A stretch of DNA of 64,000 nt from Candidatus Omnitrophota bacterium (GCA_022710715.1 JAKLGJ010000002.1:17590-81589); one strand, 5' to 3'; shown: positions 1 to 46,679, counted from the stretch's first letter. A program made the numbers and translations. Notes: generated from the letters alone by a model not told the origin.

Positions 1-352
1 ATCGATTCCCGAAAGCAACATATTCATAGCAAAAGGCTTAGGCAGGTATAAATCCGCACCGATGACCCGGCCCACCACCCGGTCTACTTCGGAATCTTTC
101 GAAGTCAGCATTACTACGGGAATTGCTTTCAGCTGTTCATCTTTCTTCAATTCTTTACAGACAACCTCTCCTGGGATAGTTGGAAGGACTAAATCCAGCA
201 GAATCAAATCCGGGTACTGCTCCCGGGCCTGCTGCAGACCGGCTTCTCCGGTAGAAGCTTTAATCACCTCGAAACCCTTTTCCTGAAGATGGCTTTCGAG
301 CATCTGCGCAAAAAAGATACTGTCTTCAATAAGCAGAATCTTTTTCTTAACC
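1..352 (-). CDS. Response regulator receiver (REC) domain protein; its C-terminus runs off the window edge.
   Basis: Reverse translation from the ATG at 352 gives MVKKKILLIEDSIFFAQMLE...LILLDLVLP...VVMLTSK, with the DD pair, phospho-acceptor Asp and T/K residues of CheY-like receivers. It reads past position 1. Confidence 0.8.
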
Positions 353-381
353 ATGAAAAATATTGTAGCACAAAACCGAAT

Positions 382-771
382 TTAGGGTAAGTTTTTTCGA
401 GATGCCTGGAAGGCGGCCCAGCGGTCAGCGCGTTGCCTGGACTGGGCTTGATAGAGAATGTTGCGCAGAACAAGAGGAATGGGATTACACAGGCCGCGAG
501 GCATCTGGATTCCGGCTCTAAACTGATTCTCTCCCATACGGTTGATCCAGACGACCTGCCCCTGCAAGGGAACATGCTCCTGGTTATCCGGCATCTGTAA
601 CTGCATGTGGACCTGCCGGCCCAGAGACAACTGCTCGCGGGTAAGCACGCCAACGCCATTGGCGCTGATATTTTTCAGCCGTAAACCCGCCATGCCCGGA
701 ATATCTATGGGCATATCCATCTCGTAGCGGGGAAATTTCCTTTTTTCCTGAAAAGATGTAGGTTCTTGCAT
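382..771 (-). CDS. PilZ domain protein (c-di-GMP receptor).
   Basis: The 129 aa ORF carries RKFPRYEM and NISANGVGV motifs, matching the RxxxR and D/NxSxxG PilZ signature. It lies 30 nt upstream of the co-directional REC gene. Confidence 0.7.
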   Translation of the reverse strand: MQEPTSFQEKRKFPRYEMDMPIDIPGMAGLRLKNISANGVGVLTREQLSLGRQVHMQLQMPDNQEHVPLQGQVVWINRMGENQFRAGIQMPRGLCNPIPLVLRNILYQAQSRQRADRWAAFQASRKNLP

Positions 772-7474: not shown

Positions 7475-8380
7475 TTAGAAACTGTGGATGGCTACATAAT
7501 GAAAGGCGCTCAATGCGGCTTTGGCCCCCTCACCGGCAGCGACAATGATCTGTTTTGCCGGCACATCGGTCACGTCCCCGGCCGCAAACAACCCCGGCAC
7601 GTCGGTTTCGCTCTTACAATTAACCATGATCTCTCCGTATTCGTTCTTGCGCACGTCGCGGATGAACTCCGCGCTGGGAATCAACCCGATTTCCACAAAC
7701 ACCCCCTGCACCGGTAAAAAATCCACCAGCGCCGCTTTCTGAACCGTAATGCCGGCGACCATCTGGGCCCCGTTGACTGAAGTGATCCGGGCATTATTGT
7801 AGATGGCGACATTGGAAGCGTTCTTGAGCTTCTCCGCAATAGCAGAGTCGCCGGTCAGCTCGGCGGCGATATTGATCAGATATACCCGCCGGGCGATACG
7901 CATCAATTGCAACGCCGCATCCAGAGCAGAGTTACCGCCGCCGATAACCGCTACATCTTTATTGGCGAAGAGCGGGCCGTCGCAGGTGGCGCAATAGGTC
8001 AGCCCTTTATTCCTGAACTCTTTTTCACCCGGCACGCCCAACTCTCTGGATTGTTTGCCTGAAGCGACGATCACCGTCCGCGCCTGATACTCGGTTTTAT
8101 CCGTACGCACGACGAACATGTCCCGCTGACGCATAAGCTCCTGCACGGATTCACCTTCATGCAGCGGAACAGCGAAAGTCTTCATGTGCTCCTCGAATTT
8201 CGCCACCAGCTCGATCCCGGGAATGAACTGATAGCCGGTATAGTTTTCCACGCCGCCGCTCCAGGCAGTCTGCCCGCCAACGTCGCGACTGATGATTACG
8301 AAATTCATCTTCTTGCGGGCGGCGTAAATGGCCGCGGTGATCCCCGCCGGCCCGGCGCCGATAATAATCAAATCAAGCAT
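7475..8380 (-). CDS. trxB: Thioredoxin-disulfide reductase-like FAD/NAD(P) oxidoreductase.
   Basis: 301 aa with the FAD-binding motif IIGAGPAG, the redox-active CATCDG, and GGGNSA. Confidence 0.75.
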   Translation of the reverse strand: MLDLIIIGAGPAGITAAIYAARKKMNFVIISRDVGGQTAWSGGVENYTGYQFIPGIELVAKFEEHMKTFAVPLHEGESVQELMRQRDMFVVRTDKTEYQARTVIVASGKQSRELGVPGEKEFRNKGLTYCATCDGPLFANKDVAVIGGGNSALDAALQLMRIARRVYLINIAAELTGDSAIAEKLKNASNVAIYNNARITSVNGAQMVAGITVQKAALVDFLPVQGVFVEIGLIPSAEFIRDVRKNEYGEIMVNCKSETDVPGLFAAGDVTDVPAKQIIVAAGEGAKAALSAFHYVAIHSF

Positions 8381-8391
8381 ACTCTCTCTCC

Positions 8392-8679
8392 CTATGTCAA
8401 ACCCAGAGCCCGCTGAATCCGCTCCCGGTCAAACCCCACGATAATTTCTCCGTCGATGTCAAGAACCGGCACGCCCATCTGTCCGGATTTCTGGATCATT
8501 TCCTCCGCCCTCCCGGTGTCAACGGAAACGTCGACATTGTCGAACGCGATCCGGTTGTCGGTCAGGAACTGCTTGGCCCGCGTGCAATACGGACAGGTAG
8601 GAGTGCTATAAACAGTCACTTTCTTGGGCACCGCTGGTCCTCCTTTCTCACTCTTCCTTCTTGCTGGCTGCCGGCGCAA
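8392..8679 (-). CDS. Glutaredoxin/NrdH-like small thiol-disulfide protein.
   Basis: 95 aa with VTVYSTPTCPYC, a CPYC active site in a thioredoxin fold, then GVPVLDIDGEIIVGF. The N-terminal start is uncertain. Confidence 0.65.
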   Translation of the reverse strand: MRRQPARRKSEKGGPAVPKKVTVYSTPTCPYCTRAKQFLTDNRIAFDNVDVSVDTGRAEEMIQKSGQMGVPVLDIDGEIIVGFDRERIQRALGLT

Positions 8680-9118
8680 GATCGACGATTTCTTCGACGT
8701 CCATCACGAACACATATTCCGGCCGGGGCAACTGGGATTCCGGATGGGCGGGATGGCCTTTCCCTTCATGCAAATTACGGATAATCCTGGTGGTAATGCG
8801 CTCGGTGATCTTGCGCTCCCAGATGGCGTGCAGCCGGCGGCTCAAAGACCGGATAGGGATGATCCGCGCTTTGCCTTTCAAGCAGTAACCGCTGAAATCG
8901 TGTTCTTCTACCGCAGTAATGCTCATACGGGAGTTTCTTTTCAGATGAGCGAACGTCCGACGCATATAAGCGTCGATGAGATAAATTCTGCCGTCACGGC
9001 TGATGCGCAGGATGCCTTTGCAGGAAGTATGCGGATAGCCGGAGGCATCAATGGTAGCCACCAGCACAAACCCCTGTTTCCGGAAAAAACGCGCGACCTC
9101 TTCGGTGAGCCGTTTCAT
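8648..9118 (-). CDS. Pyridoxamine 5'-phosphate oxidase-like FMN-binding protein.
   Basis: 156 aa resembling the PNPOx split-barrel family (GFVLVATIDASGYPH...). It overlaps the glutaredoxin-like gene by 32 nt. Confidence 0.55.
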   Translation of the reverse strand: MKRLTEEVARFFRKQGFVLVATIDASGYPHTSCKGILRISRDGRIYLIDAYMRRTFAHLKRNSRMSITAVEEHDFSGYCLKGKARIIPIRSLSRRLHAIWERKITERITTRIIRNLHEGKGHPAHPESQLPRPEYVFVMDVEEIVDLAPAASKKEE

Positions 9119-9124
9119 ATGATC

Positions 9125-9520
9125 TTAACCGACCTCCAGCGGCTGGCTGCTCTGCCACAAACCGTGGATATTGCAGTACGAACCGGCCAGAATGACACCT
9201 CGCTTCTCGGTTTTGAAGCTTATCGTTGCCTGCGGGAACGTATACACCGTGCTCATGTTCGGCCCGGCGGCTGACTCGCCGTGAGCGCTGAACTCTGCCC
9301 GTCCGATCTGATAAGGGAATTTCTCGCCTTCCGGAGCAAAATAAACTTCGATCCAGCGGATATGGTGTTCGGTGGTATTGGGATGCGGTATCTCTTTGCC
9401 CACCGAAACCGTAACCAGAAAAAACTCGCCCTTCTTGACCTTCTCCGGACATTCGATCACCGGCACATGCTTTTCTTTTTTCCAGTCAGCGGACTGAAAC
9501 AGATCTTTCATTTCTGCCAT
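9125..9520 (-). CDS. sor: Superoxide reductase, 1Fe-SOR (neelaredoxin-type).
   Basis: From the ATG at 9520, 131 aa MAEMKDLFQSADWKKEKHVPVIE...GKEIPHPNTTEHHIRWIEVYF...CNIHGLW, near-identical in motif layout to Pyrococcus-type SOR. The 49-codon upstream extension in the ORF track was rejected. Confidence 0.8.
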   Translation of the reverse strand: MAEMKDLFQSADWKKEKHVPVIECPEKVKKGEFFLVTVSVGKEIPHPNTTEHHIRWIEVYFAPEGEKFPYQIGRAEFSAHGESAAGPNMSTVYTFPQATISFKTEKRGVILAGSYCNIHGLWQSSQPLEVG

Positions 9521-9533
9521 AGAGACCTCACTG

Positions 9534-9692
9534 TTAAACCTTCTCGAACATATCTTTACCCACCCCGCATTCCGGACACACCCAGGAAGCGGGAACCTTC
9601 TCGAACGGCGTGCCCGGCTCGATCCCGTTATCCGGATCGCCCGTGGCCGGGTCATAGATGTAGCCACATACCGTGCAGCGGTACTTATCCAT
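9534..9692 (-). CDS. rub: Rubredoxin (absent from the supplied ORF track because it is only 52 aa).
   Basis: Hand translation gives [52 protein letters not shown] with two CxxC pairs, in the canonical rubredoxin fold. GGAGGATGATCT RBS; sits between the FDP and SOR genes. Confidence 0.85.
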
Positions 9693-9695
9693 AGA

Positions 9696-10892
9696 TCATC
9701 CTCCTTTGATTTTCATGCCGAAGTCAACGCCGAACTGATAACACGCTTTCAATTCTTTCTCATCCGGCATGAATCTGATCCCCAACGACGGCAGTGCCGG
9801 TTCGATCCCGGCTTCTTTTACCACTGCCTCGATCTCTTTAACCGCTCCGCCGGCCCAGCCGTATGAGCCGAATGCTCCGGCAAGGCGTTTCTTGGGCTTG
9901 AACCCTTTAACCAGTTCCAGGAACCCGGCGATAGCCGGCAGCATGTCGTTATCATGGGTGGATGAACCGAAAAGAAAACCTTTGGCGTCGAGCATTTCGG
10001 TGATCACCTGGGTGCGGTCGGTTTCGGCGACATTATACAGCGCGAACTCCACTCCGGCGTCACGCAATCCCTCGGAGATAGCGCGGGCCATTCTTTCCGT
10101 AGCGCCCCACATGGTTTCGTAGGCGATCACAACTTTATCTGCGGGTTCTTGCTTTGCCCAGGCGGCATAGGCATGGACGATCTTCAGGGGATCCTTGCGC
10201 CAGATGATCCCGTGACTGGGAGCGATCATGCTGATGGCCAGATCGAGTTTCCGGACTTCTTCGAGTTTACGCAGGATAAGCGTAGACAGCGGCCAGAGAA
10301 TATTGGCGTAGTAGGTTTTAGCTTCATCCATCAGCGCGCACTGGTCCACCTCGTCGTCAAAACGTTCGGACGAAGCCAGGTGCTGACCGAACGCGTCGTT
10401 AGGCAAAAGCAGTTCTTCCTGCGGGCAATACGTGAACATGCTGTCCGGCCAGTGGATCATGGGCGCTTCCATGAAGGTTAGAGAGCGTTTGCCCAGAGAC
10501 AGCGTATCCCCGGTTTTGACCACCTGAAAAGTCCAGTCGCCGAAATAATGCTTATAGAGGCCTTCTTTGCATTTTTCCGTCCCGAGAACTATAGCCTGCG
10601 GACAGAGCCGCATCAATGCCGGAAGCGCGCCGGAATGATCGGTCTCCACATGGTTGGCGATAATATAATCTATCCTGGCCGGGTCTACGATCTCGCGAAT
10701 GCGCGCGATCATTTCCCCGGCGAACGGTCCGAATACCGTATCCACCAGACAAATCTTCTCATCTACGATCAGATAGGCGTTATAAGTAGTGCCGCGCTTG
10801 GTAGTATAGGTATGGCCGTGAAAAGAGCGCACGTTCCAATCCACCACCCCCACCCAGTAAATACCTTTCTTGAGTTCGATCGGCTTCATCAT
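9696..10892 (-). CDS. fprA: Flavodiiron protein (rubredoxin:oxygen / NO oxidoreductase, FprA/Roo).
   Basis: 398 aa with an N-terminal metallo-beta-lactamase-like diiron domain (HVETDHSGA) and a C-terminal flavodoxin domain (VIAYETMWGATERMA). Confidence 0.9.
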   Translation of the reverse strand: MMKPIELKKGIYWVGVVDWNVRSFHGHTYTTKRGTTYNAYLIVDEKICLVDTVFGPFAGEMIARIREIVDPARIDYIIANHVETDHSGALPALMRLCPQAIVLGTEKCKEGLYKHYFGDWTFQVVKTGDTLSLGKRSLTFMEAPMIHWPDSMFTYCPQEELLLPNDAFGQHLASSERFDDEVDQCALMDEAKTYYANILWPLSTLILRKLEEVRKLDLAISMIAPSHGIIWRKDPLKIVHAYAAWAKQEPADKVVIAYETMWGATERMARAISEGLRDAGVEFALYNVAETDRTQVITEMLDAKGFLFGSSTHDNDMLPAIAGFLELVKGFKPKKRLAGAFGSYGWAGGAVKEIEAVVKEAGIEPALPSLGIRFMPDEKELKACYQFGVDFGMKIKGG

Positions 10893-10944
10893 TCACCTCT
10901 TTCCGGCGACATACGGCGTCGCCTGCGCCTGCGCGACGTAGCGA

Positions 10945-11643
10945 TTATTCGACCGGCACGAATTTGGTCTTGTCCACGCCGCACACAGGACATGACCAGT
11001 TATCAGGTAGTTCCGCAAACGGGGTGCCCGCAGCGACCCCGCTATCGGGATCTCCCAGCGCCGGGTCATAGATATAATTGCAGACCGTGCAGCGGTATTT
11101 TGGCATTGCCGGCCCGGCAGCAGTTGCGGCTGCGATTCGCATATAGGTCGGAGCCGACGGAGGGGTCGTGCCGCGCTTGACCTGATGGTAATAATCATAG
11201 GTCATTACCCGGCCGGCTCCGGTTACTTCCGCAGTCACCATCTCTCCCAGGAATACGGTATGCGTTCCGCAGTCAAACTCGCAGATGACTTTAGCTTCAA
11301 GATAACCCACGGCGTAATCCAGAACTGCCGGACAGCCGGATTCCAGAATTCTATACTGCACGTTCACGAATTTATCCGTCTCCCGGCCGCTCTTGAATCC
11401 GAACGCGCCGATAAAGGCAAGCGGGGTTTCTTCCGACAGGATCGATGCGGAAAAACGCTTGCCGGCACGGATATACTCATGCGTGAGGTTGTTCTTATTG
11501 ATGCTGACGGCCAGGGTTATCGGAGAGTTGGTGATTTGAAACAGGGTATTGACGATCTGGCCGTTGAGCTTTTCCGCCCGGTTGGCGCAGACGATATACA
11601 TTCCATAGCTGATGTTATGCAGGATATTCGTGTCCATGGGCAT
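10945..11643 (-). CDS. hrb: High-molecular-weight rubredoxin: flavin reductase-like domain fused to a C-terminal rubredoxin domain.
   Basis: 232 aa. The N-terminal part has the flavin-reductase-like FMN-binding split barrel. The C-terminal 55 aa, [44 protein letters not shown], is a complete rubredoxin. Confidence 0.8.
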
Positions 11644-11649
11644 ATTATA

Positions 11650-12606
11650 TCACAGTCCTGCGGCTTTAATAACTCCCTTGACCGCTTCGGCGGATTTCCG
11701 AAAAGCTTCCTGCTCTTGCGGCTCCAGGTCTAATCGGAGAATCTGCTTGACCCCGTTGCGATTGACCACTGCCGGAAGGCTCAAATAAACATCGGAAACC
11801 CCGAGGTAATTATCCACCAATGACGATACCGGCAAGATGGCGTTCTCGTCATTGAGAATAGCCTGGGTAATGCGCACCAACGCCAGACCGATGCCGTATG
11901 AGGTTTCGCCTTTACGCTCAATGATCTGATAAGCCGAATCGCGAACTTCGCCGAAGATCTGATTGAACTCGAATTCCCGGCGACAGAGATTATTGTTCGG
12001 GCATACCGAACAGTACTGCCGGAAGAGAACGCCGCCGATCATGGCTTTGCTCCAGACCGCGAATTCGGTGTCGCCGTGCTCGCCAAGGATATACGCGTGG
12101 ATATTGTGCGGATCGACCCCGCAATGTTTACTCAACAGGAAACGGAACCGCGCAGTATCCAGTACCGTGCCGGAACTCAACACTTCCCGCCAGGGCTTGC
12201 CGGATATTTTGTACGCGGCAAAGGCAAGCACATCCACGGGATTGGTCACGATCAGCTGCAAAGCCTGCGGGGCATGGCTCATGATCTCCGGGATCATGAT
12301 TTTGAACAGATCCACGTTATCTTTAGCCAGCTCGGTCCGGGTCTGCCCGGGTTTCTGTTTCTTGCCGGCAGTCACCACGACCAGATCGGAATCCCTGATG
12401 GCAGCGTAATCCCCGGCTACCACCTCGACGGGAGAGATGTACGGAGCGCCGTGGGAAAGATCCATCACTTCCCCCTCCAGCCGCTTGCGGTCAAGATCGA
12501 CGATGACGATCTGCCGGGCCAATCCCCTGATCATCAGCGCGTAAGCATAACGCATACCCACATTGCCGCAGCCGATAATCGAAACTTTCGGTTTAAGCTG
12601 TTCCAT
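11650..12606 (-). CDS. ldh: L-lactate/malate dehydrogenase family NAD-dependent dehydrogenase.
   Basis: From the ATG at 12606 with RBS GGAGGATGCGAC: MEQLKPKVSIIGCGNVGM, a Rossmann GxGxxG, then ITAG, and catalytic Arg and His in DTARFRF and ILGEHGDT. The 66-codon N-terminal extension of the ORF was rejected. Confidence 0.8.
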   Translation of the reverse strand: MEQLKPKVSIIGCGNVGMRYAYALMIRGLARQIVIVDLDRKRLEGEVMDLSHGAPYISPVEVVAGDYAAIRDSDLVVVTAGKKQKPGQTRTELAKDNVDLFKIMIPEIMSHAPQALQLIVTNPVDVLAFAAYKISGKPWREVLSSGTVLDTARFRFLLSKHCGVDPHNIHAYILGEHGDTEFAVWSKAMIGGVLFRQYCSVCPNNNLCRREFEFNQIFGEVRDSAYQIIERKGETSYGIGLALVRITQAILNDENAILPVSSLVDNYLGVSDVYLSLPAVVNRNGVKQILRLDLEPQEQEAFRKSAEAVKGVIKAAGL

Positions 12607-31982: not shown

Positions 31983-33473
31983 TTATACCACTGTCCTTCT
32001 TTTTTCCGTAGCAGAAAATTCCATGTATTTGGCCAGCATCAGCCGCGTCTGGGCGTCCAGAGCCGGCGTCGACCCCAGGATCAGTATCAAAAACGGCACA
32101 AATAACCACTCTACGACCATCACGATATTGGTGATCCAGTGCACTTCTTTGGGCCGCGGCGGCAGAATCGCGCGGCTTAAGAGTATCCAGACAATACTCG
32201 TGCCGAGGGTAAAATTAAGCAGCACGCCGATAACGCGGGGCAGATTCTGGCTGATCGGAGTCTGGGCAAAAAACACGCCCCCCACCAGAAGCGGCAGCGA
32301 CGGCATCACTCCCATGATGATCGCCCAGAGTGCCCAGGTAACATGGCTTTCCAGCAGATGGAAAGACCGGCGGATCTTAAGCACCAGCGGAATTTCATGG
32401 TCGCGCAAAAGCCGCGATACGACGAACGGAAAATTCTCCACCCCCCAGGCCCAGCGTCGCTTCTGCTTATACTGCACCTCCAGGGTCTTGAAGAGATTTT
32501 TCCCGTAAGCCACATCCATGGAAACGGTGGTATAGAGAGGAATAACCCGGTAATCGCCCTTATAGTACAGAAATGCTTTCCAGTAGACCACCGAATCGTC
32601 GGAAATCATATCCACCGGCCAGTAATCGATATCCACCAGGGTTTTGAAACTCATGCTGTGGCTGGAGAAGGTGACAAATTTCTCCAGACGCAAACTCTCG
32701 ATCATCTGGCAGAAAGAAGCGCTGATCTCGATAATCCTGGCCAGAGAGGGCGCCTGCCAGATATTATTGTTATACACCGGCACCGGTTGATAACTGGCTT
32801 GATGGGGTTTGGGATTGGTCAGGAAATGGTACGCCAGGCAACCGAAATATTCCCGGTCGATACAGGTGTCCGCGTCAAAACAGGAAACAATGACTTCTGC
32901 CAGCGGAATCTTTTTTTGTTCCAGCAGATCCTTCGCCTTCCTGGCTGCCCAGGTCGCGTTTGCCCCTTTCAGACGCTTTTCTCCCGGCAGTTGATCCGGA
33001 TGGAACGTGGTCAGATAAGCGCCGAACGTGCCGCCGAATTCCGCCTCGAGGATTTTGGCATACTCCCCGGCAGGCGCGTGACGTCGCTCGAAAGCCATCA
33101 CCACGATAATCCGGCTCTTGGGATAATGACAGGTTTTCAACGCCTCCAGAGAAGGCCGCAGAATATCCAGGCCTTCCTTATAGACTGGAAAGATGACCAG
33201 ATGATACAGGTCTTCCCATTTGCGTTTGGGCAGCGACCGGCAGGCGGCGAGCCAGTCTTTGCTGCGTTCCCGGGATAAACGGCGGTGCGCCAATACCAGC
33301 AGCGTGGTCAGGTAGACGGTGCGGATGATCCAGTAGAAATCGAAAATAATAATGATCACTGCGGCGATCACCGGACGCCAGACGGTCATCACCACCAGAA
33401 AGATGATAATCCCCCAGGAAATACTGCCCGGGAGGATCTCCAGAAATCGCTTAGTTCTTTTCCCTGCGCTCAT
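31983..33473 (-). CDS. Membrane-embedded processive family-2 glycosyltransferase (cellulose/chitin/hyaluronan synthase-like).
   Basis: 496 aa with N- and C-terminal TM bundles. It carries a DxD (CFDADT) and QYKQKRRWAWG, which is the Q(Q/R)xRW processive synthase motif. Confidence 0.7.
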   Translation of the reverse strand: MSAGKRTKRFLEILPGSISWGIIIFLVVMTVWRPVIAAVIIIIFDFYWIIRTVYLTTLLVLAHRRLSRERSKDWLAACRSLPKRKWEDLYHLVIFPVYKEGLDILRPSLEALKTCHYPKSRIIVVMAFERRHAPAGEYAKILEAEFGGTFGAYLTTFHPDQLPGEKRLKGANATWAARKAKDLLEQKKIPLAEVIVSCFDADTCIDREYFGCLAYHFLTNPKPHQASYQPVPVYNNNIWQAPSLARIIEISASFCQMIESLRLEKFVTFSSHSMSFKTLVDIDYWPVDMISDDSVVYWKAFLYYKGDYRVIPLYTTVSMDVAYGKNLFKTLEVQYKQKRRWAWGVENFPFVVSRLLRDHEIPLVLKIRRSFHLLESHVTWALWAIIMGVMPSLPLLVGGVFFAQTPISQNLPRVIGVLLNFTLGTSIVWILLSRAILPPRPKEVHWITNIVMVVEWLFVPFLILILGSTPALDAQTRLMLAKYMEFSATEKRRTVV

Positions 33474-42142: not shown

Positions 42143-45001
42143 TTACACGACGATATTGATCAGTTTGTTGGGGACGACGATGAATTTACGCATGGGCTTG
42201 CCTTGAAGATATTCCTGCGACCTGGCATCCGCGATAATCAGTTCTTTGAGTTTCTCTGCCGGCGTATCGGTGGGCACGACAATGCGGGAACGCACCTTGC
42301 CGTTGACCTGGATCACCATTTCCACGCTCTCTTCCACCAGCAGCGCCGGGTCGCACACCGGCCACTGCGCTTTGAAGATGCTCTCCTTATGGCCCAGCGT
42401 TTCCCAGAGCTCTTCGCAGAAGTGCGGGACCATCGGCGCGAGCATAATCAGCAGCGCTTCATAGATCGGCTTATCCGCGCCGTTCTTATAGATTTCGTTC
42501 ACCAGCTCCATCATGCCCGCGATGGCGGTATTGAACTTGAAATTCTCCACGTCATCGGTGATCTTCTGGATCGCTTTGTGCAAAGCGCGCGTTACCCCGG
42601 GCGCAACCTGATCCTTAATATCCGCCTGGATGCGCCAGACCCGGTTCAGGAACCTGAACGATCCTTCCAGTCCCCGATCATCCCATTCCAGTTCGGTTTC
42701 CGGCGGCGCGGCAAAGAGCATAAATAAACGCAACGCGTCAGCGCCGTATTTCTGGATCATCGAATCCGGATCAACGATATTGCCCCGCGATTTAGACATC
42801 ACCTCGCCGTCCTTGAGCACCATCCCCTGGGTGAGCAGGTTAGTGAACGGCTCGTCGAATTCCAGCATGACCAGGTCTTTGAAAAACTTGGTGAAAAAAC
42901 GGGAATAGAGCAAGTGCAGGATGGCGTGTTCGATGCCGCCGATATACTGATCGACCGGCATCCAGTATTTGACTTCCCGGGGATCGAACGGCAGCTGCGC
43001 ATTCTGCGGAGAGCAATAGCGCAGGAAATACCAGGATGAATCGAAGAACGTGGCCATGGTATCGGTTTCCCTGCGGGCGTCCGCTTTACACTTCGGGCAT
43101 TTCACTTCCACGAATTCCCGGACTTTCCCCAGGGGACTTCCACCTTCGCCGGTAAACGGCGCATCGGAAGGAAGCTTCACCGGTAATTCTTCATAGGGCA
43201 CCGGCACGATGCCGCATTTCTCGCAGTAGATTATCGGGATGGGCGTGCCCCAGTAACGCTGCCGGGAGATGAGCCAGTCGCGCAAACGCCAATGCGTCTG
43301 GATTTTACCGGTCTTATGCTGCTTCATCCATTCGGCGATCTTATGCTTGGCATCCTGATTGTGCAAACCGTTGAAATGACCGGAATTGACCTGGAGGCCG
43401 TCGCCTTCATACGCCTCGGTCATGGTCTCGGGCGACAACGCCGGCTTGTTCTCGGGCTGGATGACCACCCGCAAGGACAGACCGTGTTCTTTGGCGAACA
43501 GAAAATCCCGCTGATCATGCGTGGGCACGGCCATGATCGCGCCGGAGCCGTATTCCATGAGCACATAATCCGCGATCCAGATCGGGATCTCTTCATGATT
43601 GACCGGATTGATCGCCAGGGCGCCGGTAAACACGCCTTCTTTCTTGACCTCCGCGGAAGCCCGGACGGTCTTGCTCTCTTTCTTGACTTTATCGATAAAT
43701 GCGCGCGCCGCCTGTTCTGCGGGACGCCCCTTGATCAGTTGTTCGACCATCGGATGCTCGGGAGCAAGCACGATATAAGTGGCGCCGAAGATCGTATCGG
43801 GCCGGGTGGTGAACACCGGGATGAGCTGATTATCGTCTTTGGTGTGGAAATAAATCTCGACGCCCTGGCTCTTTCCGATCCAGTTGGTCTGCATCGCCTT
43901 GACCCGCTCCGGCCATTCGCTTAACTCGTCAAGATCTTCCAGCAACCTGCCTTTATATTCGGTGATCTTGAGATACCACTGCTCCAGTTCCTTTTGCTCG
44001 ACCGGGGTATGACAGCGCCAGCAGCCGCCGTCGACAACCTCTTCGTTGGCCAGGGTAGTGGCGCAGCTGGCGCACCAGTTCACGCTCGAAGCCTTCTTGT
44101 AAGCCAGGCCGCGCTCGAACATCTTCAGGAATATCCACTGGTTCCATTTATAATACCCGGCGTCGCAGGTGGAGACTTCCCGGTCCCAGTCATAGGAAAG
44201 CCCCATGCGCTTGAGCTCGCGCTCCATCTCGCCGATACATTTATAGGTCCAGCTGTCCGGCTTGGTCTTGTTCTTGATCGCGGCGTTCTCCGCCGGCTGG
44301 CCGAAAGCGTCGAACCCCATGGGATGCAATACGGAAAAACCCTGTATCCATTTGTAGCGGCTGTAAACGTCGCCGATGGTATAGTTGCGCACGTGGCCCA
44401 TATGGATCTTTCCCGACGGATAGGGAAACATCTCCAGGCAGTAAAATTTCTTTTTCGCCGAGATCTCCGCCTTGAAGGCTCTATGTTCCTGCCAGTACCG
44501 CTGCCATTTCTCTTCGATCTCCTTGAAAGCATATTCTTTGATCTGTACCGGCGGCGTCAGCGGCTTCAATGCCGGCGCCTCGGCGACCGGCGGCAGGGGC
44601 GCGTGACTATCGGCGGACGGCATGCGCAGGGGCATCAACGAGATCATGGTCTGTATCCCGCGCAACACGTCTTCCATCTTGCAGGGTTTGGTCAAGTAGT
44701 GGTCGGCTTCCAGGGAATAGGCGTGTTTGAAAACAGCCAGGTCGGTCTGGGCGCTGATAATGATCACCGGCCTCCAGCGGTCGGTGAACTTCGAGCGGAT
44801 CTCGCGCAGCACTTCGAACCCGTTCATCCTGGGCATGGTCAGATCGAGCAGGATGATATCGGGGTCCGCTTCCTTGACTTTGCGCAGGGCTTCTTCGCCG
44901 TTCGAAGCAACGGTCACGGTAAAGCCTTCGCGGGTCAAACGTGAACGCATCGAATCCACGATATCCCATTCGTCGTCGACTACCAGCAGCTTATACGCCA
45001 T
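42143..45001 (-). CDS. leuS: Leucyl-tRNA synthetase carrying an in-frame N-terminal response-regulator receiver domain (REC-LeuS fusion).
   Basis: The 952-codon frame has no internal stop. Residues 1-120 form a complete CheY-like REC (VVDDE, ILLDLTMP phospho-Asp, IIISAQT, YLTKP). A 30-residue Pro/Ala linker follows. Then comes a canonical class I LeuS: YAFKEIEEKWQRYW, the HMGH motif (FPYPSGKIHMGHVRNY), the CP1 editing region (TTRPDTIFGATYIVLAPEHP) and the KMSKS motif VMSKSRGN. The RBS AGGGGAAAGGG precedes the ATG at 45001; there is no SD before the internal Met codons. Confidence 0.85.
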   Translation of the reverse strand: MAYKLLVVDDEWDIVDSMRSRLTREGFTVTVASNGEEALRKVKEADPDIILLDLTMPRMNGFEVLREIRSKFTDRWRPVIIISAQTDLAVFKHAYSLEADHYLTKPCKMEDVLRGIQTMISLMPLRMPSADSHAPLPPVAEAPALKPLTPPVQIKEYAFKEIEEKWQRYWQEHRAFKAEISAKKKFYCLEMFPYPSGKIHMGHVRNYTIGDVYSRYKWIQGFSVLHPMGFDAFGQPAENAAIKNKTKPDSWTYKCIGEMERELKRMGLSYDWDREVSTCDAGYYKWNQWIFLKMFERGLAYKKASSVNWCASCATTLANEEVVDGGCWRCHTPVEQKELEQWYLKITEYKGRLLEDLDELSEWPERVKAMQTNWIGKSQGVEIYFHTKDDNQLIPVFTTRPDTIFGATYIVLAPEHPMVEQLIKGRPAEQAARAFIDKVKKESKTVRASAEVKKEGVFTGALAINPVNHEEIPIWIADYVLMEYGSGAIMAVPTHDQRDFLFAKEHGLSLRVVIQPENKPALSPETMTEAYEGDGLQVNSGHFNGLHNQDAKHKIAEWMKQHKTGKIQTHWRLRDWLISRQRYWGTPIPIIYCEKCGIVPVPYEELPVKLPSDAPFTGEGGSPLGKVREFVEVKCPKCKADARRETDTMATFFDSSWYFLRYCSPQNAQLPFDPREVKYWMPVDQYIGGIEHAILHLLYSRFFTKFFKDLVMLEFDEPFTNLLTQGMVLKDGEVMSKSRGNIVDPDSMIQKYGADALRLFMLFAAPPETELEWDDRGLEGSFRFLNRVWRIQADIKDQVAPGVTRALHKAIQKITDDVENFKFNTAIAGMMELVNEIYKNGADKPIYEALLIMLAPMVPHFCEELWETLGHKESIFKAQWPVCDPALLVEESVEMVIQVNGKVRSRIVVPTDTPAEKLKELIIADARSQEYLQGKPMRKFIVVPNKLINIVV

Positions 45002-45872
45002 AACGCCCTTTCCCCTGTTGCAACTTTCGTACGCGGGCCAGATTCATCCGGTCGCTGCGCGCGGTATCTTTGGGAGTCTCGAGAATGAACGCCGCGCCGG
45101 CGCAACGACTGTCGTTCACCAGCCTGCCCAGCCCCTGAAGACCAATCATACCTTTGCCGAGATGTTCGTGCCGGTCGCGATGGCTGGCGCACGCGTCTTT
45201 ACTGTCGTTCAAATGGATCAGCTTGAGCTTTTCCCAGCCTACCTGCTTGCCGAAAACGCGCATGGTTTGTTCATACCCGGCAGGGGTAACCAGATCATAC
45301 CCGGCTGCGTGCGCGTGGCAGGTATCCAGGCACACGCCCAGACGCGCCGGCTGTTCGGTTCGCCTGAACACATAGGCCAGATGCTCGAAGCGGTAGCCCA
45401 GCCAGGAACCTGCTCCGGCAGTATTCTCCAGCAGCAAACTTACCGGCAGCGCTTTAGTCTTATCCAGGATGCGGTTGACCGCCTGGGTCAGCCGATGCAG
45501 CCCTTTGCCTTCGCCGCTGTCTTTATGACTGCCCGCGTGCGCCACGACATACTCCGCGCCCAGAGCCGCCGCTTCCTGCATATCCTGGACAGCGGCGCGG
45601 ATAGAACCTTTATATAAAATGTTATACGGCGAAGCCAGATTAACCAGATAGGGGATATGGATGAAAACTTTTGCCATCCCGCTCTGCCGGCGCCGCAGCC
45701 TGAATTCCTCTATGTCTTCGGGTTTAAGCCGCGTTTTGCGCCATTGCCGGGGATCGCGCGGGAAGATCTGCATCGCGGTGCACCCCAGAGCAGCTGCCCG
45801 GTCGATGGCCTCATAGATATGGCCGGCAATGGAAACATGCACGCCCAGAAGCATACGGTCTAATTGTATCAT
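44991..45872 (-). CDS. nfo: Endonuclease IV (AP endonuclease, Nfo).
   Basis: 293 aa TIM-barrel AP endonuclease 2 family (LLGVHVSIAG...AMQIF, LENTAGAG, HLNDSKD). The stop overlaps the REC-leuS start by 11 nt. Confidence 0.8.
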   Translation of the reverse strand: MIQLDRMLLGVHVSIAGHIYEAIDRAAALGCTAMQIFPRDPRQWRKTRLKPEDIEEFRLRRRQSGMAKVFIHIPYLVNLASPYNILYKGSIRAAVQDMQEAAALGAEYVVAHAGSHKDSGEGKGLHRLTQAVNRILDKTKALPVSLLLENTAGAGSWLGYRFEHLAYVFRRTEQPARLGVCLDTCHAHAAGYDLVTPAGYEQTMRVFGKQVGWEKLKLIHLNDSKDACASHRDRHEHLGKGMIGLQGLGRLVNDSRCAGAAFILETPKDTARSDRMNLARVRKLQQGKGRYGV

Positions 45873-45938
45873 AAGTGCCCGGAGAGGTCAATTTAGCAAA
45901 AAGGGCGGCTTGTCAGCCGCCCGTGCGCCGGAAAATAA

Positions 45939-46011
45939 GTGGAGCTGAGGAGGATTGAACTCCTGACCCCTTGCATGCCATGCAAGTGCTCTCCCAGCTG
46001 AGCTACAGCCC
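45939..46011 (-). tRNA. tRNA-Ala (anticodon GGC).
   Basis: Hand-folded 73 nt: acceptor GGGGCTG/CAGCTCC with the G3:U70 alanine identity pair, D arm GCTCAGCTGGGAGAGC, anticodon loop ATGGCAT (GGC), T arm AGGAGTTCAATCCTCCT, discriminator A. CCA is not encoded. Confidence 0.85.
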
Positions 46012-46091
46012 CTCAAAGATTTTATGACTATGTATAGAGAAAATCTTTCATCCTCGGCCTAGAGATGGCCGAGGAGAATACATCTTGCCAC

Positions 46092-46596: not shown

Positions 46597-46679
46597 GCCG
46601 AGGTGGCGAAATGGCATACGCGGCAGCCTCAAAAGCTGTTGAGGGCGACCTCATGAGGGTTCAACTCCCTCTCTCGGCA
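46597..46679 (+). tRNA. tRNA-Leu (anticodon CAA), class II with a long variable arm.
   Basis: Hand-folded 83 nt GCCGAGGTGGCGAAATGGCATACGCGGCAGCCTCAAAAGCTGTTGAGGGCGACCTCATGAGGGTTCAACTCCCTCTCTCGGCA. Anticodon loop CTCAAAA, 15-nt variable arm, T arm GAGGGTTCAACTCCCTC. The architecture parallels E. coli tRNA-Leu. Confidence 0.8.

Follow-up and report, generated by a model that had tools for sequence, protein, structure and literature searches.

A receiver domain fused in frame to leucyl-tRNA synthetase in one lineage of Candidatus Omnitrophota, and the gene pair from which it derives

The fused reading frame

The 64,000-nt stretch of a Candidatus Omnitrophota bacterium analyzed here (GCA_022710715.1, JAKLGJ010000002.1:17590-81589; hereafter the window) carries on its minus strand an open reading frame (ORF) of 952 codons plus a stop codon, in which a response-regulator receiver (REC) is joined to a leucyl-tRNA synthetase (LeuRS, encoded by leuS). 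The gene occupies positions 42143..45001, with its ATG at 45001 and its stop codon at 42143-42145. The 952-amino acid product consists of a CheY-like REC domain (residues 1-126), a disordered linker rich in proline and alanine (residues 127-153), and a bacterial LeuRS (residues 154-952). An identical protein, P0001, is deposited at NCBI as HRZ13906.1 from a Candidatus Omnitrophota metagenome-assembled genome, under a record name that reads merely "leucine--tRNA ligase". An initial annotation of the window had described one gene in which a complete receiver, a linker, and a full-length LeuRS are joined in frame, and this is borne out by the ORF itself, by Pfam, and by the NCBIfam model TIGR00396.

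The receiver half (44624..45001, minus strand) is an orthologue of stand-alone receivers, as judged from Pfam, structure prediction, and family identity. It matches the Response_reg profile (PF00072) over residues 6-114 with 95.6 bits against a cutoff of 30.2. The set of residues needed for phosphorylation is complete: D9 and D10 form the acidic pocket, D53 stands at the end of beta3, S83 at the end of beta4, and K105 at the end of beta5, with Y102 as the aromatic switch. The codon of the predicted phospho-acceptor, Asp53 in the motif ILLDLTMP, lies at 44843..44845 (minus strand) and is invariant across 40 family members, among which conservation of D10 is at least 90%. When residues 1-175 were modeled with AlphaFold2 from an alignment of 39 correctly aligned REC family members, residues 1-126 came out as a complete (beta-alpha)5 receiver fold with predicted local distance difference test (pLDDT) values mostly between 87 and 96. 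Its strands span residues 4-8, 28-32, 49-52, 79-83, and 101-104, and its helices residues 12-24, 35-45, 61-71, 88-96, and 109-126. Residues 129-157 have pLDDT values below 50 and no secondary structure, and the first LeuRS helix begins at residue 157. Among solved structures the receiver matches generic members of the fold (YycF, PhoP, Spo0F, and CheY, with 55-74 bits).

The synthetase half (42146..44542, minus strand) is of the bacterial type. From residue 157 on it scores 1085.6 bits against the equivalog TIGR00396 leuS_bact, for which the cutoff is 548.4, and the class I synthetase core (tRNA-synt_1) is matched in Pfam as well. Its 119 nearest LeuRS homologues are 71-76% identical and about 800 amino acids long, and they come from Omnitrophota wherever the source names the organism. 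The HIGH signature is present as HMGH (residues 200-203; 44393..44404, minus strand), as it is in 119 of 119 of these relatives. The CP1 editing domain (residues 373-559; 43325..43885, minus strand; PF13603, 237 bits) keeps its motifs TTRPDT (398-403) and HDQRD (495-499). The KMSKS-type signature, given as KMSKS in the initial annotation, is actually VMSKS (residues 734-738; 42788..42802, minus strand), the form typical of this clade and found in all 119 nearest relatives. The anticodon-binding domain Anticodon_1 (PF08264, 90.9 bits) follows at residues 805-917 (42251..42589, minus strand).

Assemblies from ENA, JGI, NCBI, and Logan yield the identical 952-residue ORF on 13 contigs, of which the longest measures 914 kb. 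The ENA and JGI loci (L001 and L002) match the window with 100% identity across 14,859 nt, so these three sample one population. A second strain (L087, GCA_025490955.1) differs at 78 of the 2859 nt of the gene (97.3% identity) and at 16 residues, and its 952-codon frame is still open. The synonymous divergence (dS) between the two fused strains is about 0.106. In the receiver there are 11 synonymous changes versus 1 non-synonymous change (omega 0.025), indicating strong purifying selection on this domain while fused; in LeuRS the counts are 50.5 and 14.5 (omega 0.07). The linker, with no synonymous and 1 non-synonymous change, offers too few to interpret.

That a missed stop codon or a frameshift in sequencing or assembly joined two separate genes has a negligible probability: metagenome assemblies make up the whole evidence base, and the three that are 100% identical over the compared stretch may share one population, but the 13 contigs come from differing pipelines, the diverged strain retains the frame through its 78 nucleotide differences, the receiver has changed almost exclusively at synonymous sites, and the junction holds 27 codons more than its counterparts in relatives, with the leuS ATG now an ATC. 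Artefact, pseudogene, and chance-ORF readings are rejected on the strength of the 13 contigs, the identical loci, and the open, selected frame in L087. It is also very improbable that the fused gene is a redundant or decaying copy that drifts or gains a new function while a second, canonical leuS does the housekeeping, because the LeuRS half scores about twice its equivalog cutoff, has all catalytic and editing motifs, evolves with an omega of 0.07 between strains, and lies in the syntenic position where all relatives have their leuS. The fusion is genuine and selectively maintained in one species-level lineage of Candidatus Omnitrophota, a conclusion that we hold with near certainty.

Origin of the fusion from adjacent genes

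In none of the 119 nearest LeuRS homologues is a REC part of the same polypeptide. In two sets of related loci (L003/L004 and L005/L006), a separate REC gene of 128 codons stands between nfo and leuS, with 3-4 nt separating its end from the leuS ATG. Relatives of this receiver are encoded at at least 567 loci in species-representative genomes, and 80 of these loci were fetched. Among the 80, there are 44 in which REC shares 55% or more identity with that of the window; leuS lies directly downstream in 41 of the 44, and the gap between the two genes is mostly between -7 and +8 nt, with exceptions of 94 and 187 nt. The metagenome matches listed, among which the window's own JGI contig does not appear, contain 9 further REC-leuS pairs, all with a stop codon, together with 12 loci that lack REC; none of these falls between 98% and about 76% identity, which limits how finely the fusion can be dated. 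When leuS loci of the Omnitrophota type are tallied, 45 have both REC and nfo, with nfo upstream of REC, 6 have REC without nfo, 4 have REC with the state of nfo unknown, 13 have nfo without REC, and 1 has neither.

No fusion occurs among the roughly 54 related REC-leuS pairs. The fused architecture is therefore not a conserved design shared by orthologues in related genomes; it belongs to one species-level lineage. A neighbor-joining tree of LeuS places the two fused strains together as a single terminal lineage surrounded by REC-linked relatives, between which the REC-less loci also appear in a few small groups; the tree is star-like, which leaves the number of independent REC losses uncertain. 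The fusion thus has its origin in a conserved pair of separate REC and leuS genes, whose abutting or overlapping junctions are typical of translational coupling; this descent was absent from the initial annotation. No other REC-LeuRS fusion was found in sequence data or in the literature, although neither search was exhaustive. A query consisting of REC and the junction returned only stand-alone receivers and did not return P0001 itself, so it does not exclude further fusions. The top 150 matches to residues 1-230 in an exhaustive representative search were all hybrid kinases with multiple REC domains, whose domain scores add, and they are uninformative on fusions.

The junction itself supports this origin in detail. 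In the window it reads "...TMISLMPLR MPSADSHAPLPPVAEAPALKPLTPPVQ IKEYAFKEIEEKW", and the junction peptides of the fusion are MPSADSHAPLPPVAEAPALK and PLTPPVQIK. The corresponding unfused junctions read "...TMISLMPHRLT* cct ATG GCA GAA TAT" in L003/L004 and "...TMISLIPLRIK* aatt ATG GCA GAA TAT" in L005/L006. The linker (MPSADSHAPLPPVAEAPALKPLTPPVQ; 44543..44623, minus strand), delimited by comparison with the L003 and L005 junctions and by the AlphaFold2 model, thus comprises 27 codons that stand in place of the relatives' stop codon, 3-4 nt spacer, and ATG; the initial annotation had put its length at 30 residues. The codon aligned with the relatives' leuS ATG is now ATC (Ile154; 44540..44542, minus strand), so that the ancestral start is lost, where the LeuRS N-termini of relatives read MAEYNFKE, MEYSFKDI, and similar. 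Together, the 27 added codons and the change from ATG to ATC show that the junction evolved and is not the product of an error at one base. The rest of the window contains no donor for the linker DNA.

Although the initial annotation saw no credible internal ribosome-binding site, the linker does contain a possible one by motif match (44567..44581, minus strand), in which GAGG at 44578-44581 is followed by an 8-nt spacer and by TTG at codon 145 (44567-44569). Translation from this TTG, 9 codons ahead of the canonical LeuRS N-terminus, would yield a predicted product consisting of LeuRS with a 9-residue extension. The site equals real ribosome-binding sites of this genome in quality and is identical in L087. 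This GAGG-N8-TTG element may be a fossil of the leuS ribosome-binding site, or a still-active one that supplies free LeuRS alongside the fusion. In the linker region (44543-44632, minus strand), a stretch of about 90 nt at approximately codons 129-159 shows no nucleotide difference from L087, where about 2.4 would be expected at 2.7% divergence; this lack of differences is not significant alone, and it fits constraint on an embedded initiation signal.

The locus would then have two products, with most LeuRS made free from the internal start and REC-LeuRS as a minor read-through product. We consider this rather unlikely. It draws on the match of motif and spacing to real starts, on the rarity of such an arrangement (a comparable Shine-Dalgarno motif precedes about half of the genes at the fusion locus and only 2 of the 76 in-frame start-like codons of the fused ORF), and on the position of the site shortly before the canonical N-terminus in both strains. 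However, because the linker stretch as a whole is unchanged between the strains, nothing can be learned from the motif being conserved, and the chance of finding such a site in a GC-rich linker of 27 codons, at about 0.03-0.06, is not negligible. The LeuRS of relatives starts where the ATC now stands and not 9 codons upstream, and the internal site would be covered by ribosomes engaged in translating the fused frame. A two-product locus would modify both the regulatory and the neutral readings of the fusion discussed below and is compatible with either.

Upstream of the fusion lies nfo (44991..45872, minus strand), which encodes an AP endonuclease 2/xylose isomerase-like TIM barrel protein (AP_endonuc_2). 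The stop codon end of nfo overlaps the fusion ATG by 11 nt, so the two genes are probably in one operon. At the start of nfo is a promoter-like site, TTGACC-17-TACAAT with a TG (45863..45891, minus strand), and beyond it, following a tRNA-Ala gene, a strong terminator-like hairpin with an 8-pair stem, 7 of the pairs G-C, and then TTTTT (45903..45922, minus strand). Both were identified by consensus match only, and promoter-like sites number 5 in the region versus 3.4 expected by chance. Taken together, they suggest that the transcription unit probably begins at nfo, insulated from transcription upstream. In the promoter-like site, the -10 element has its end at 45863, which is downstream of the ATG of the longest nfo ORF (45872) and about 9 nt upstream of another ATG at 45854. 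The JGI gene call uses the latter, giving 287 instead of 293 amino acids, and nfo may start at 45854 on a leaderless mRNA or one with a very short leader. No leader or riboswitch was found around the fused gene, and Rfam detects only two tRNAs.

A short way upstream of the nfo-(REC)-leuS unit lie divergently oriented genes for tRNA-Leu(CAA) (46597-46679, plus strand) and tRNA-Ala(GGC) (45939-46012, minus strand). The pair is kept in about 20 of the 30 related loci examined, one without REC included (among the loci with the pair are L003, L005, L017, L024, L027, L028, L032, L034, L035, L037, L040, L043, L048, L087, and L104). A tRNA-Leu gene is thus a conserved near neighbor of leuS in this clade, about 1.6 kb away in the window. 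In L017, L037, and L040 the tRNA-Ala gene is directly ahead of REC and there is no nfo.

Several other genes in these loci deserve mention. In L005 (1-2455), a hybrid histidine kinase (REC-PAS-HisKA-HATPase_c) and two single-domain RECs are encoded about 3 kb upstream of nfo-REC-leuS; these extra receivers are 28-30% identical to the leuS-linked REC. Neither L003 nor the window has the kinase cluster, which therefore presents no obvious conserved partner. L003 contains a giant ORF (8162-12403), called at 3954 residues and running off the locus, with repeated matches to GNAT acetyltransferases; it lies downstream of a flavodoxin-like gene, where the window has comEA and comEC instead. At the edge of the window are a separate REC (1-381, minus strand; 78 bits), which is cut by the window edge and 33% identical to the fused REC, and an adjoining separate PilZ-domain protein (382-771, minus strand; 48.7 bits), correctly noted in the initial annotation as an unfused pair. 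An ORF at 264-659 that overlaps the two has no Pfam match and is probably spurious. A 496-amino acid ORF (31983-33473, minus strand) amid housekeeping genes that are otherwise readily annotated (SecA, Lnt, UvrC, and MurJ) matches no Pfam family at E ≤ 1e-5.

The receiver as a possible partner of LeuRS

The 120 best matches to the receiver are all single-domain proteins of 127-134 amino acids, 63-70% identical to the REC of the window. Mean column identity in the family is 76%, and the invariant residues include D9, D53, S83, Y102, K105, W76, R77, P78, nearly all of positions 95-107, M119, S121, L122, and R126. At 60-70% identity to the window, REC is as well conserved as Nfo (60-64%) and better than the neighboring PG-binding protein (about 50%). 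The loci kept with a REC relative are, among the matches listed, mostly titled Omnitrophota, while about a quarter bear the label "uncultured Planctomycetales" and single ones the labels Margulisiibacteriota and Deltaproteobacteria.

The best explanation of the whole, to which we would commit only tentatively, is that a real fusion of an operon pair has joined LeuRS to a receiver that acts as its phosphorylation-dependent partner. The second part, considered separately, is plausible but somewhat less assured, and its basis is gene context. An unlinked histidine kinase would phosphorylate Asp53, and this would switch the strongly conserved alpha4-beta5-alpha5 face and thereby alter the contact between receiver and LeuRS. 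The contact would occur in trans between co-translated proteins in relatives, and in cis, through the flexible tether of about 27 residues, in the fused lineage. The outcome would be that leucine charging, editing, or the stability or location of LeuRS is tuned to an external signal. The fusion would then serve as a "Rosetta stone" for a REC-LeuRS interaction throughout the clade, and if the internal GAGG-N8-TTG also gave rise to free LeuRS, the tether would apply to only a fraction of the LeuRS molecules. Extended to a large clade of Omnitrophota, the proposal becomes more speculative still: the stand-alone receiver could be a phosphorylation-switched regulatory subunit of LeuRS, with two-component signaling acting directly on tRNA charging or editing and not on transcription.

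The case for a partnership begins with the leuS-linked REC subfamily, which is found almost exclusively beside leuS, in an association that outlasts nfo (REC stays beside leuS in the 6 loci without nfo). Stop and start codons abut or overlap, the small receiver is unusually well conserved, and in one lineage a tether has been both tolerated and selected.

A considerable set of observations weighs against it. The 13 related loci with nfo and leuS and no REC show that the receiver is dispensable for LeuRS. In REC-linked enzymes, 364 LeuRS columns show conservation of 95% or more; only 3 of these differ in the REC-less groups, and conservatively so, and this comparison thus reveals no REC-dependent surface or signature on LeuS. 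Synteny in this clade is conserved over more than 10 kb, which makes the adjacency of REC and leuS weak evidence when taken alone. REC is a promiscuous domain, and inference from fusions is unreliable for such domains. The fusion has occurred in 1 of about 55 lineages. The initial annotation had suggested looking for a cognate histidine kinase nearby in the genome; none is encoded among the large ORFs of the 64-kb window, and a tblastn search with a hybrid-kinase fragment was empty. The internal start, too, may allow the tether to be bypassed.

Nor is the REC family specific to LeuRS. A sister clade of receivers, at 44-52% identity, has neither nfo nor leuS nearby, and in 18 of 28 loci the next gene is an ORF of about 270 amino acids resembling a membrane-anchored alpha/beta-hydrolase. 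This ORF begins directly after the REC stop codon and has an N-terminal hydrophobic segment and a GESLGG motif (L047, L050, L051, L055-L057, L059-L061, L065, L066, L070, L074, L075, L079, and L081-L083). The sister clade shares the signatures ADHYLTKP and WRPVIIIS with the leuS-linked RECs, and its receiver and hydrolase-like ORF may be a second pairing of a receiver with an enzyme.

The main rival to a regulatory partnership is a neutral fusion, in which the receiver serves an unrelated pathway, for instance by shuttling phosphate in a phosphorelay, by acting as a phosphate sink, or by binding some other target as CheY does. REC would reside in the nfo-leuS operon for constitutive co-expression, and loss of its stop codon would have tethered it harmlessly to the exposed N-terminus of LeuRS. 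This is a possibility of some weight, even if we are inclined to doubt it. It gains from the absence of REC at 13 nfo-leuS loci, the coupling of the sister clade to a different gene, the lack of a LeuS signature, the generally high synteny, and the restriction to one lineage, and the long linker, disordered in the AlphaFold2 model, leaves both domains free. It accounts less readily for a leuS-linked subfamily that is nearly always at leuS, including where nfo has been lost, for abutting or overlapping junctions that imply co-translation, and for the persistence of the fusion through a dS of about 0.1 with purifying selection on both halves. A stand-alone receiver in a housekeeping operon with no kinase or chemotaxis genes nearby would also be unusual.

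Of the reading offered by the initial annotation, then, the genuine fusion with both halves intact stands, and placing an essential enzyme under two-component control overstated what follows from gene context. Regulation of LeuRS by REC is a well-founded and testable hypothesis, not a demonstrated mechanism. Although confined to one lineage, the fusion points to a widespread REC-leuS gene pair. If the receiver does modulate LeuRS, the pair would constitute a new way for an environmental signal to act directly on the capacity or fidelity of translation, in a phylum whose members are mostly uncultured, often host-dependent nanobacteria. The natural fusion offers a single protein in which such regulation can be tested, and the approximately 50 unfused pairs offer material for co-evolution analysis and for predicting the complex. 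If the fusion is neutral, it would be a clean, datable case of two abutting cistrons merging, by loss of a stop and a start codon and gain of a disordered, GC-rich linker, with the old ribosome-binding site perhaps kept.

Comparison with known systems

Literature searches for a receiver or response regulator combined with a leucyl- or other aminoacyl-tRNA synthetase (aaRS) returned nothing relevant, and "undescribed" is limited here to the literature searched; a comprehensive review of these enzymes makes no mention of a receiver, a response regulator, or two-component systems (PMC7373986). The initial annotation likewise knew of no described REC-aaRS fusion, and we met none, in a search that was not exhaustive. 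Within that literature, what is new is a receiver with an undescribed output partner and, equally, an aaRS with an undescribed appended domain.

Response regulators with enzymatic outputs include the methylesterase CheB, the diguanylate cyclases PleD and WspR, and the RpfG-type HD-GYP proteins, whose receivers typically use the alpha4-beta5-alpha5 face to gate the enzyme. REC-LeuRS resembles these in that an N-terminal receiver, complete in its phospho-acceptor set, is connected by a flexible linker to an enzyme at the C-terminus. It differs in that the output is an essential housekeeping aaRS, that the architecture is confined to one lineage, and that regulation is here a proposal. The unfused orthologues, as receivers of 127-134 amino acids without an output domain, are instead like CheY, DivK, CpdR, and Spo0F. 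Unlike these, they belong to a family that appears specific to Omnitrophota, and they abut leuS in a housekeeping operon with no kinase or chemotaxis genes nearby. We know of no member of the leuS-linked receiver family that has been characterized.

In eukaryotes, LeuRS (LARS1/Cdc60) is a leucine sensor for TORC1. There, as proposed here, LeuRS takes part in signaling besides charging tRNA. The eukaryotic enzyme, however, is the sensor and not the regulated output, and the machinery is unrelated and contains no receiver domain.

To our knowledge, no aaRS is known as the output of a two-component system, and the known phosphorylation control of bacterial aaRS is exerted by the toxin Ser/Thr kinases HipA and HipT. 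HipA phosphorylates GltX and HipT phosphorylates TrpS (PMC6581861, PMC8262856). These are a precedent for control of a bacterial aaRS by phosphorylation, which in their case throttles translation. The toxin kinase modifies the aaRS itself, whereas in REC-LeuRS the phosphate would be carried by an aspartate of the attached receiver, and its effect on the synthetase would be allosteric or steric.

As to architecture, the Mycoplasma penetrans methionyl-tRNA synthetase (MetRS) has an N-terminal aminotransferase domain, and its authors left open whether that fusion is adaptive or neutral (PMC7694997). Like REC-LeuRS, it is a bacterial class I aaRS with a lineage-specific, N-terminally added, and independently folding domain. 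The two differ in what was added: the appendage of the M. penetrans MetRS is metabolic and supplies the amino acid substrate, while that of REC-LeuRS is a domain of signaling proteins.

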